A DNA stretch of 64,000 nucleotides from Candidatus Thermosaccharophagus tengchongensis (GTDB lineage: Bacteria; Armatimonadota; Fervidibacteria; Fervidibacterales; Thermosaccharophagaceae): assembly GCA_032161105.1 (NCBI GenBank), contig JAVHTD010000003.1, one strand, 5' to 3'. Position 1 is the stretch's first letter. The number at the start of each line of letters is the position of its first letter. Below are positions 10,802 through 13,457 of this stretch, piece by piece. A program made the position numbers and the translations under genes. The notes beneath the pieces were generated by a model. The model had not been told where the DNA came from and ran no database searches. It saw only the letters and a program-made list of their open reading frames with translations.

Positions 10802-11006
10802 GTGCGTGGGAGCCATCATGTGAGGGCAGCCGCGCGAAAAAGCGCCCAAGAAATCGGATGGATTTTTTATCCGCCTGAGGTTTGGCAACTTTTGCACAGT
10901 CCATGCGGTCGGAAATGCCTGCAACACCCGTAGCGCTATAAATCCGATTTGCGCTGTGAGTTGGCTCACGCTCAAGCCGCAAGATGTGGTTATGGGGGTG
11001 AGCAGT

Positions 11007-11489
11007 ATGCCGACAGTGCTCGTCATCTACTACAGCCGGACTGGTAACACTCAGGCGATGGCTGAGGCAGTTGCCGAGGGCGCAAAAAGCGTGCCCGGCG
11101 TCAAAGTTGAACTTAAGCGTGTTGAGGAATGCACTGTTGAAGACCTGCTTAATGCTGATGGGATAATCATTGGCTCACCAACTTACTACGGATTGCCGGC
11201 AAGCGAAATAAAGCGCCTGTTTGATGAGAGCGTCCGCTATCATGGGCAGCTTGAGGGCAAAGTCGGAGGGGCATTTTCCTCATCGGCTAATGTCGGTGGT
11301 GGCAACGAGACAGCCATACTGGGCATTTTGCAGATGATGCTCATTCACGGCATGATTGTTCAAGGTGCCGTGCAAGGCGATCATTACGGGCCGGTGAGCG
11401 TCGGTTATCCAGATGCGCGCTCAAAATCACAGTGCTTTGCCCTGGGTGAACGAGTTGCGAAGCTCGTGCTCAAGTTGCACGGTGAATAA
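11007..11489 (+). CDS. WrbA-like flavodoxin / NAD(P)H:quinone oxidoreductase
   Basis: YYSRTGNT FMN-binding loop, GSPTYYG, GKVGGAF, GGGNET. Confidence 0.88.
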   Translation: MPTVLVIYYSRTGNTQAMAEAVAEGAKSVPGVKVELKRVEECTVEDLLNADGIIIGSPTYYGLPASEIKRLFDESVRYHGQLEGKVGGAFSSSANVGGGNETAILGILQMMLIHGMIVQGAVQGDHYGPVSVGYPDARSKSQCFALGERVAKLVLKLHGE

Positions 11490-11528
11490 GCCTTAAGCTG
11501 CATTGATGACCTCTTGGGTGACAAATGG

Positions 11529-12059
11529 ATGCGCTATATCGGAGCGGCAATTGGGTCGGCATCAATTGTTGTTGCGAGCGTAATAGTTGGGCTTGCAGTG
11601 AACGCTATTCGCCCGGATGGCATACCGCTGCGCTACAGCGAACTTGAAAGGTTGCTCAGGACGCGCGAGAACCAGCCATGGCTTGAGCGTCTCCCAAAGG
11701 GTGTTGAGGTGATTGAGTTTAAGCGTGCATGGATGCTTTTCATCTCCCGCCGCGCAATATTTGTTGATGCGCGCCCAGCCAGCGATTATGTGAAGGGTCA
11801 CATACCTGATGCTATCAATTTGCCAGCTGCAGAAAAGGAGTTTGAGGCTTCATTTAAAGCTGCGAAGGGCAAGCTCCCAAAGGATGCAAACATTGTCGTA
11901 TATTGTGCCGGCGGCTCATGACCACATAGCGTATCGGTCGCGGAGCGGCTGGCAAAGCTGGGTTACAAAAAGTTGCTCGTGATGCCCGGCGGATGGGGTG
12001 AGTGGGTCTCGCACAAATGCCCAATTGAGCGGTCGGAGAAAAGCAAAGGGACCAAATGA
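11529..12059 (+). CDS. Membrane-anchored rhodanese-like protein, probable selenoprotein (in-frame TGA 11919-11921 read as Sec)
   Basis: N-terminal TM helix, FVDAR, GHIPDAINLP, VVYCAGGS-[TGA]-PHSVSVAERLAKLGYKKLLVMPGGWGEW. The rhodanese C-terminal signature lies after the TGA. Next stop is 12057-12059. SECIS-like hairpin immediately downstream of the TGA. Confidence 0.82.
11922..11962 (+). promoter_or_regulatory. Putative bacterial SECIS element
   Basis: Upper stem UCGGUCGC (11934-11941) pairs with GCGGCUGG (11945-11952) using G-U pairs, loop GGA beginning 20 nt after the UGA, lower stem UAGC/GCUG. Confidence 0.6.
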
Positions 12060-12085
12060 AGCGTATATTCCAGCGGGTGATTTAG

Positions 12086-12604
12086 ATGGTGCGTTGGCGT
12101 TGGTGGAAAGTGATGTGCTTCATCTTGCGCATTGGGTTGGGCGGCATATTCGTCTTTGCGAGCCTGGGAAAGATAGTTGATGACCCGCTGATCTTCGTTA
12201 GCGTGGTTGAGAGTTACAAAGTGCTCCCAAAGGCTCTTATCCCGCTCTTTTCCGTTGTGCTGCCTTGGGTTGAATTCATCGCCGGCACCCTGCTCATAAT
12301 TGGCTATGCTGTGGAGAGCGCTGCAGCGGTCATAGCATTGATGCTCGTTGCATTCATCTTCGGCATCGTCATAAATCTGTTTCGCGGTGTTGAGATGGCG
12401 TGTGGCTGTTTTGGGTTCATTGAAGGGGGTGATAAAATCGGCTGGTATACCGTGGTGAGAGATCTCGCCATGCTCCTCAGCGCTGTGTTGCTGGTGTTCG
12501 CCAATGTCCCGTTTGCTTCGCTTGAGAGTGCCTTCTCAAAGATGCGCCAACGGGACAACAAAGGCGAGGTGATGTGCAATGCGGATGAGCGAGCGAATGA
12601 ATAG
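12086..12604 (+). CDS. MauE/DoxX family redox-associated membrane protein
   Basis: LRIGLGGIFVFASLGK, LPWVE, CGCFG and RDL motifs; four TM helices. Confidence 0.9.
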   Translation: MVRWRWWKVMCFILRIGLGGIFVFASLGKIVDDPLIFVSVVESYKVLPKALIPLFSVVLPWVEFIAGTLLIIGYAVESAAAVIALMLVAFIFGIVINLFRGVEMACGCFGFIEGGDKIGWYTVVRDLAMLLSAVLLVFANVPFASLESAFSKMRQRDNKGEVMCNADERANE

Positions 12605-13457
12605 GCGTTTATTCATCGCCACCATTGCCGGTGCGGCTGCAAGCACAAGCTTGAGCAAAACCTTAATCGGCGGTGAAAGCGCACCATTCAAAAAGGCAAT
12701 ACTGCTTGGGATGTTGCCATCTGATATGCCACTTACGGACAGGCTTAAGCTCGCCAGAGATGTTGGATTTGATGGTCTTGAAGTTCCGCCAATGAGTGAG
12801 GAAGATGCAAAGAGGCTGCGTGAAGCCGCTGACAATGTCGGGATTGAGTTGCACTCAGTCATCTATGGCGGTTGGCATGCGCCGCTTTCAAGCCCCGATG
12901 AGAAGGTGATTGAGAACGGCTTGAACGGGCTTAAGAGGGCACTCCACACCGCAAAAATCGTCGGCGCTGATGCGGTCTTGCTCGTTCCGGGAATAGTTAA
13001 TGCTCAAACGAGGTATTCCGAATGCTATGAGAGGAGTCAGCGCAATATTAAGCGCATAGTGCCGCTCGCTGAGGAGCTCGGCATAACGATCGCAATTGAG
13101 AATGTGTGGAACAACTTCCTCCTCAGCCCAATTGAATTCGCAAGGTATGTTGATGAGTTTGGCAGCGAGCGCGTGCGAGCTTACTTTGATGTCGGCAACA
13201 TAGTCAAGTTCGGCTTCCCCGAAGATTGGATATTGACGCTCGGAAGGAGGATAGTCAAAGTCCACCTGAAGGACTTCAAGCGCGACAAAAACGCATTTGT
13301 CATGCTCCTTGAAGGCGATGTGGATTGGAAGGCTGTAAGACAAGCATTGATTGAGGTTGGCTATAGGGGTTACTTGACAGCGGAGCTTCGTGGCGGCGAT
13401 GAGGCATATTTGCGCGATGTCAGCGCACGCATGGACAGGATAATCAAGGGAACTTGA
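12579..13457 (+). CDS. Tat-exported sugar phosphate isomerase/epimerase (hexulose/xylulose-phosphate epimerase-like TIM barrel)
   Basis: NRRLF twin-arginine motif followed by a hydrophobic stretch; IENVWNNFLLSP, YFDVGN, HLKDF, AE motifs. Confidence 0.85.
   Translation: MRMSERMNRRLFIATIAGAAASTSLSKTLIGGESAPFKKAILLGMLPSDMPLTDRLKLARDVGFDGLEVPPMSEEDAKRLREAADNVGIELHSVIYGGWHAPLSSPDEKVIENGLNGLKRALHTAKIVGADAVLLVPGIVNAQTRYSECYERSQRNIKRIVPLAEELGITIAIENVWNNFLLSPIEFARYVDEFGSERVRAYFDVGNIVKFGFPEDWILTLGRRIVKVHLKDFKRDKNAFVMLLEGDVDWKAVRQALIEVGYRGYLTAELRGGDEAYLRDVSARMDRIIKGT

Follow-up and report, generated by a model that had tools for sequence, protein, structure and literature searches.

A membrane-anchored rhodanese gene with a conserved in-frame TGA, paired with MauE, as a probable selenoprotein gene in Candidatus Thermosaccharophagus

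The DNA analyzed here, a stretch of 64,000 nucleotides (hereafter the window) of contig JAVHTD010000003.1 from Candidatus Thermosaccharophagus tengchongensis (Armatimonadota; assembly GCA_032161105.1), carries a gene for a small, membrane-anchored rhodanese-like protein that is interrupted by an in-frame TGA in its active-site loop. We consider it very probable that the gene is genuinely recoded, i.e., that its UGA is translated through, and likely that the residue placed there is selenocysteine (Sec). On balance, the explanation that we favor for the locus as a whole is that of a Sec-recoded anchored rhodanese whose Cys126/Sec131 couple is cycled by the MauE-family membrane protein encoded by the next gene. 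The comparisons described below directly support the continuing reading frame, the retention of the TGA and of a hairpin after it, the column occupied by Cys or by the TGA, the pairing of the two genes, and the presence of the Sec machinery apart from selA. They were made between the source genome (G000; 2.74 Mb in 44 contigs, 97.4% complete, with the window lying in contig C3) and three congeners (G021, G022, and G023), which together make up the four genus genomes, as well as with more distant homologues.

The first part of the open reading frame (ORF) closes with NIVVYCAGGS, after which comes the TGA at 11919-11921 and, in the same frame, a run of 45 sense codons (PHSVSVAERLAKLGYKKLLVMPGGWGEWVSHKCPIERSEKSKGTK) up to the TGA at 12057-12059 that ends the read-through frame. 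A preliminary description of this DNA, made from the sequence alone, had proposed that the ORF is cut inside its rhodanese fold at VVYCAGGS-TGA and that the same frame continues for 45 codons to 12057-12059, ahead of the MauE gene. The coordinates were found to match, and the cut inside the rhodanese domain was borne out by the frame as well as by the Pfam Rhodanese profile (cut-off 22.2 bits), for which the score rose from 43.1 bits for the truncated product to 66.3 bits with read-through, while the profile positions covered grew from 14-71 to 14-101 of 102. The structure was predicted with AlphaFold (AF2) from a 42-sequence family alignment (mean predicted local distance difference test score, pLDDT, of 90.9). 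On this model, DSSP assigned a helix to residues 2-27, followed by a rhodanese fold in which residue 131 stands immediately before the helix 132-143, and the best structural matches found by Foldseek were the rhodaneses 6mxv, 3tp9, and 3nhv. The hydropathy maximum (2.32) falls at residues 6-24, and almost every one of the 42 sequences in the family alignment has a hydrophobic segment at its N-terminus. The N-terminal membrane anchor already suspected in the preliminary description is thus backed by a confident helix in the model.

Within the order, the gene was present in only 4 of the 24 genomes searched, all of them of one genus. Each of these four copies has exactly one in-frame TGA and matches that extend to residues 170-176, with a protein identity of 59-79% across the four species and the consensus YC[AGS]GGS*P[HN]S[VI]..VAE[RQ]L...VMPGGW..W (the asterisk denoting the TGA) in 4/4 loci; a metagenome contig that is 98% identical (L062) likewise has the TGA. 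Selection was compared on both sides of this codon using pairwise ratios of nonsynonymous to synonymous substitution rates (dN/dS) between genus orthologues, which amounted to 0.08-0.22 over the 36 codons after the TGA versus 0.11-0.25 over the 100 codons before it, indicating purifying selection on the part that follows the TGA. In hot-spring assemblies, contigs from four runs of four studies (depth 19-763) had positions 11919-11921 unchanged and showed no indel, and the sole positions at which they departed from the window were 11742, 11855, and 11869. These population variants (11742 A>G, Ile72Val; 11855 T>C, synonymous Phe; 11869 G>A, Gly114Asp) all precede the TGA. A sequencing error was rejected, as the TGA, and not TGC or TGT, was found identically in close relatives and in independent assemblies. 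A genome-wide reassignment of TGA was rejected as well: TGA terminates the gene itself and 1731 of the 3049 long ORFs of the genome, and recoding must therefore be local rather than the product of an altered genetic code.

The TGA could also be read as a true stop, in which case the gene would be a pseudogene in decay or would encode a truncated protein of 130 residues, with the downstream frame and the hairpin as leftovers. Every public gene call does end at the TGA (all six calls of the clade, at 59-100% identity, stop at YC-x-G-G-[ST], in line with the preliminary claim that standard gene callers truncate the protein), and the hairpin taken alone is statistically unremarkable. Nevertheless, we regard this reading as hardly credible, given that four species, down to 59% identity, have kept both the TGA and, behind it, an intact frame under selection, that neither a frameshift nor a second stop has accumulated, and that truncation would cost a third of the rhodanese fold (profile positions 14-71 of 102 left).

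An exhaustive HMMER search returned 10564 relatives at E <=0.001. In the query, residue 131 was written as C, a choice that introduces a slight bias toward alignments with Cys at this column. In the BLASTP alignments of the best 150 of these, Cys occupied both columns 126 and 131 in 173 of 327 high-scoring segment pairs (HSPs), including the first 50 rows, the remaining HSPs being ordinary C-x-x-G-x-R rhodanese repeats. Across 26 other Armatimonadota loci, the column of the TGA held TGC or TGT in 27 of 28 HSPs and a Gly codon in one, and the pattern [YFW]C-x4-C was present in all 116 further homologues. Residues D80, R82, Y125, C126, C131, L141, G155, and W159 were invariant in the family alignment (A1). 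Cys is therefore what homologues have at the UGA column, and the statement of the preliminary description that YC-x-G-x-x-C loops are common in such rhodaneses is correct for this subfamily. Contig and metagenome scans seeded with the rhodanese query recovered mostly generic C-x-x-G-x-R rhodaneses, with the C-x4-C loop in a single locus (L022; 1/40).

The closest relatives are Cys-type, anchored C-x4-C rhodaneses encoded beside MauE, which are annotated as "rhodanese-like domain-containing protein" or "rhodanese-related sulfurtransferase". They share with the putative Sec protein a length of ~160-200 residues, the N-terminal anchor, an N-x-x-R-P-x-G-I-P-L juxtamembrane motif, the YC-x-G-x-x-C-x-x-S loop, and the MauE neighbor, and differ from it in having TGC or TGT for TGA, in lacking the hairpin, and in being only 29-40% identical. 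A more remote likeness is found in BH2092 of Bacillus halodurans (PDB 3nhv, 3o3w; E 1.7e-6, 23% identity), a single-domain rhodanese whose YC-W-G-P-A-C loop aligns with YC-A-G-G-S-U; it differs as a cytoplasmic-type structural-genomics protein of unknown function that has neither an anchor nor Sec. Several deviating loci were encountered in other Armatimonadota. In two of them (L113 in G048 and L115 in G277), located beside MauE, Gly replaces the canonical Cys126 and the second Cys is kept; in another (L110 in G257), Gly occupies the column of the second Cys, and this is the sole locus without MauE. In-frame TGAs were also seen in two rhodanese homologues of other Armatimonadota families (G193:C1:2156395-2156691 and G257:C6:14307-14780), two in one and one in the other; these may be Sec forms or pseudogenes.

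The RNA that follows the UGA can fold into a hairpin, which the preliminary description had pointed out for its G-led loop 20 nt past the UGA. The model of a bacterial Sec insertion sequence (SECIS) given in PMC13188914 has a loop of 3-9 nt, a stem of 4-16 bp, a G in the first two loop positions, a spacing of 16-37 nt, and an energy of at most -7.5 kcal/mol. With its 8-bp stem, 20 nt past the UGA, and an energy of -9.4 kcal/mol (-10.0 to -10.7 kcal/mol in genus orthologues), the hairpin satisfies these constraints as given in section 5 of that review. All four TGA-bearing orthologues keep it with identical spacing and loop. In the control set of Cys- or Gly-form sequences, some passing hairpin occurred in 3 of 28 HSPs, each at a different place. 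Within the genus, all stem cells are paired (32/32), with one compensatory and three one-sided changes; the compensatory pair (C-G -> U-A) replaces Arg by Gln on one side and is synonymous (Val) on the other. Separately, a genome-wide scan listed 239 in-frame TGAs at which the frame is open in both directions and a SECIS-passing hairpin is present; most of these are probably due to chance, and other selenoprotein genes may sit among them.

Most of the machinery needed for Sec decoding was recovered from the source genome. The selB gene (C3:24340-26220) is located on the same contig, some 6 kb upstream of the window, a tRNA-Sec(UCA) was found with 75.9 bits, and selD (G000:C5:91187-92119, minus strand; locus L001) itself contains an in-frame TGA at SG-U-ASK. 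The same three components occur in 3/3 congeners, with one TGA in each selD. No selenouridine synthase was found in the genome, and hence no other known use of SelD was found, Se-cofactor genes having not been searched for. From these sequence comparisons we infer selenium insertion itself at residue 131.

Several results weigh against the interpretation favored here. When the 67 nt after the UGA were folded whole, their stability was no different from expectation (z = 0.03), a SECIS-passing hairpin was obtained by our own bulge-free scan at 543 of 20000 random TGAs of the genome (2.7%), no Rfam match was detected in window positions 11700-12200 at E up to 1, and the covariation of the stem comes from four sequences that effectively represent two lineages and was equalled by 87 of 500 shuffles. 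As for the machinery, selA was not found in the 97.4%-complete assembly of G000 by TIGR00474, PF03841, or tblastn with the SelA of a congener, nor was it found in the congener G023. In addition, the genome encodes a long tRNA-Cys(GCA) that fits the criteria for tRNA-ReC of PMC13582414. Finally, the charge bias around the anchor favors an outward-facing domain only weakly, the N-terminal flank being the more positive one in 25 of 42 sequences.

Part of this weight is lifted by the comparison with relatives. The hairpin is raised above chance by its conservation in 4/4 Sec forms as opposed to 3/28 Cys or Gly forms. As regards selA, two of the three congeners (G021 and G022) have the gene, as do 17 of the 20 sister-family genomes. 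The small size of the contigs that hold the congener copies (10 kb and 3.3 kb) suggests that an assembly or binning gap may be at work in G000. Synteny is compatible with a deletion as well as with such a gap: the one shared neighbor of the G021 selA adjoins an aldo/keto reductase in G000, with both flanks differing between the species, and nothing on the 3.3-kb selA contig of G022 matches G000. The preliminary description had made its recoding reading hinge on the residue found in homologues at the UGA column, on the TGA of close relatives and independent reads, on selection downstream, and on the Sec machinery. None of these four tests refuted it, with a mixed outcome in the case of the machinery, of which selB, tRNA-Sec, and selD were found in G000 itself and selA was not.

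The long tRNA-Cys, which the preliminary description had not anticipated, raises the question of which amino acid is placed at the UGA. It measures 92 nt, has U as discriminator and a long variable arm, and is encoded outside the window at G000:C10:44437-44528 (L007:1500-1591, minus strand), in the same genome as a normal 74-nt tRNA-Cys (C5:103083-103156). It scored 46.7 bits on the tRNA-Sec model, its fold is stable (-49.6 kcal/mol, z = -3.95), and a similar long tRNA-Cys exists in the congener G022 (L130). According to PMC13582414, which cites Vargas-Rodriguez 2018, tRNA-ReC of both anticodon types can place Cys at SECIS-linked UGAs, and tRNA-ReC-like tRNAs accompany UxxU hydrogenases in 5/5 Armatimonadota genomes, where the UGAs may be read as Cys. 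It is conceivable, then, that recoding aided by the hairpin and SelB leads mostly or wholly to Cys through the tRNA-ReC-like tRNA, perhaps depending on selenium supply, which would make the product an ordinary C-x4-C rhodanese obtained by an unusual route. The 92-nt tRNA in G000 and its counterpart in G022, the 5/5 hydrogenase-bearing genomes of the same phylum, and the failure to find selA in G000 or G023 all speak for this option. We nonetheless judge it improbable, as tRNA-Sec, selB, and a selD that itself requires Sec are kept in 4/4 genus genomes, selA is present in 2/3 congeners, there on small contigs that suggest an assembly or binning gap, and in 17/20 sister-family genomes, no selenouridine synthase was found as another SelD-dependent trait, and Cys alone could be had more simply from a plain TGC codon. 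Judged by sequence, Sec is more likely than Cys at this UGA, and partial or conditional Cys insertion is possible; more speculatively, the same UGA might be read as Sec or as Cys according to selenium supply, through tRNA-Sec or the tRNA-ReC-like tRNA.

The second constant feature of the locus is its partner gene. Of the 30 Armatimonadota loci that have a homologue, 29 have MauE directly after it, as compared with 0/40 loci of generic rhodaneses, and no description of this pairing, or of this protein, was found in the literature searched (full text). The locus has all the traits by which we delimit a MauE-coupled anchored rhodanese module (a working unit rather than a curated family), namely the anchor, the YC-x-G-x-x-C/U loop, and an adjacent MauE with a CXC motif. 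Among 50 multidomain homologues that were scanned, one rhodanese-MauE fusion and two AhpC/TSA-rhodanese fusions were detected. The former (P0026; 700 residues) consists of three rhodanese domains and a C-terminal MauE, and the latter (P0038 and P0059) combine a thioredoxin-fold AhpC/TSA domain with two or three C-x4-C rhodanese domains. One MauE of another family (L109; G193:C1, about 2160 kb) has an in-frame stop at the position of the family's conserved Trp (LP*IE). For MauE itself, a preprint (10.64898/2026.03.05.709764) reports that homologues from two phyla substitute for DsbB in E. coli, that the CXC, predicted to be periplasmic, is required, and that ubiquinone docks to the protein; rhodaneses are never mentioned in it.

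Put together, the proposed mechanism would begin with the decoding of the UGA at 11919-11921 to Sec, in which the hairpin at 11934-11952 would act together with SelB and tRNA-Sec. In place of the C-x4-C of the family, the active-site loop would then read C126-A-G-G-S-U131. The rhodanese would be the dedicated partner of the MauE encoded 27 nt downstream, itself a DsbB-like and probably quinone-linked oxidase with its CXC on the outer face. Oxidation by MauE would turn Cys126 and Sec131 into a selenenylsulfide, after which the rhodanese domain would hand the oxidizing equivalents to extracytoplasmic thiol or sulfane-sulfur substrates. We infer a DsbB/DsbA-like pair because of the MauE adjacency, the CGCF motif, the replacement of DsbB by MauE, the fusions, the pattern of Cys loss, and the weak charge bias; the side of the membrane, direct electron transfer with MauE, the selenenylsulfide chemistry at Cys126/Sec131, and the nature of the substrate are likewise derived from this comparative evidence and are put forward as presumptive. 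DsbB-DsbA and MauE-MauD are comparable in that they too consist of a membrane oxidase with paired Cys and a soluble or anchored two-Cys partner encoded nearby, and they differ in having a thioredoxin-fold CxxC partner instead of the rhodanese-fold C-x4-U seen here. More tentatively, the protein might be a rhodanese-fold, Sec-bearing counterpart of DsbA, in which a MauE-loaded Cys126-Sec131 selenenylsulfide oxidizes envelope substrates as a selenium-accelerated branch of the MauE pathway; this extended version is possible, but we hold it with considerable reservation.

The main functional rival also takes the protein to be a true selenoprotein, acting as a carrier of sulfane sulfur or selenium coupled to quinone and not as a disulfide relay. 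Cys126 would form a persulfide, Sec131 would accept or resolve it, and MauE/DoxX would provide the link to quinone in the manner of a DoxDA-type thiosulfate:quinone oxidoreductase. The rhodanese fold and the catalytic Cys at its canonical place have indeed been kept, MauE matches Pfam DoxX too, and the best NCBIfam neighbors are rhodanese-type selenoproteins. Such a role appears unlikely to us, however, for a subfamily in which the loop-closing Arg/Thr of rhodaneses is swapped throughout for Cys or Sec, in which two members beside MauE (L113 and L115) do without the canonical Cys and keep the second one, and whose C-x4-C domains also occur in fusions with thioredoxin-fold AhpC/TSA domains; a disulfide-forming activity has moreover been demonstrated for MauE in the preprint.

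Rhodanese selenoproteins as such have already been catalogued, a point missing from the preliminary description, and the gene, truncated in public annotation, adds a member to a known kind. The review PMC13188914 distinguishes five forms: form 1 (UxxS; G. sulfurreducens, WP_010941598.1), forms 2 and 4 (UxxG), form 3 (CxU; NF041203), and form 5 (TsoB, UxxxxU; NF045694). Form 1, as far as its motif description alone allows the comparison, has the same local motif (here U131-P-H-S134), the same domain (PF00581), and one Sec; no Geobacter-named protein was among the 120 homologue matches listed. The best NCBIfam match was NF041203 (rhodanese_LYCAU), with 55.8 bits against a cut-off of 115 over profile positions 34-125 of 126. 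Its members are also small rhodanese selenoproteins, in which Sec comes two residues after Cys (CxU), versus five here. TsoB resembles the putative Sec rhodanese in its x4-spaced redox pair with Sec at the second position and in its tie to a membrane thiol-disulfide protein, and the Sec column of the rhodanese is the counterpart of the second U in TsoB. It differs in having two Sec, a fused DsbD-like domain, and a length of about 572 positions, as against a single Sec and an unfused protein in our case. The NF045694 model matched with its rhodanese part only (48.6 bits; cut-off 805). Since both scores stay under the respective cut-offs, the protein lies outside both curated models. On TsoB as a selenoprotein, the literature search (full text) gave only the review PMC13188914.

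The pairing with MauE, by comparison, is the part that is absent from the literature searched, and the interest of the gene lies there and in its decoding as Sec or Cys. Because public records truncate the gene in every case seen, the selenoprotein is missing from Armatimonadota gene sets. The use of Sec at the second Cys of C-x4-C would mark this position as chemically critical, and the same position is also retained where the canonical rhodanese Cys has been lost; this concerns a widespread, uncharacterized protein that is nearly always linked to MauE. MauE has only recently been shown to be DsbB-like, and natural partners are known for it in a minority of phyla, which makes the rhodanese a concrete and testable candidate partner. 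Furthermore, with tRNA-Sec and a tRNA-ReC-like tRNA in one genome, the gene could serve as a handy reporter for the amino acid that is placed at such UGAs.

Table 1. Coordinates in the window of the rhodanese-like gene, its elements, and its neighbors
Feature	Position	Strand	Remarks
Read-through rhodanese-like (seleno)protein gene	11529..12059	+	176 residues, membrane-anchored; ATG at 11529, alternative TTG at 11514
N-terminal hydrophobic helix, predicted membrane anchor, residues 2-27	11532..11609	+	Helix in the model and hydropathy
Rhodanese-like domain, residues 76-161, spanning the TGA	11754..12011	+	Pfam PF00581; Foldseek
Cys126 codon (TGT), canonical rhodanese active-site Cys that opens the loop	11904..11906	+	C126 invariant in alignment A1
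TGA codon, residue 131, proposed selenocysteine	11919..11921	+	Conserved in the genus; Cys at this column in homologues
SECIS-like hairpin, UCGGUCGC/GGA/GCGGCUGG	11934..11952	+	Stem 11934-11941 with 11945-11952, loop GGA 11942-11944
MauE/DoxX-family membrane protein, next gene	12086..12604	+	Pfam MauE 87.5 bits; also matches Pfam DoxX
C106-G-C108-F motif of MauE	12401..12412	+	C106, G107, C108, and F109 invariant in 29/29 neighbors; alignment A2
Flavodoxin/FMN-reductase-like gene, directly upstream	10956..11489	+	Pfam FMN_red, Flavodoxin_1; synteny in the genus only
Xylose-isomerase-like TIM-barrel gene overlapping the end of MauE	12579..13457	+	Pfam AP_endonuc_2; synteny in the genus only

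The wider neighborhood of the pair is specific to the genus. By tblastn, the flavodoxin-like gene adjoins the rhodanese in the genus loci (L058-L061) only, and the two genes probably belong to one operon. While this arrangement is not seen in other families, the flavodoxin-like and TIM-barrel genes tightly flank the rhodanese-MauE pair on the same strand in 4/4 genus genomes.

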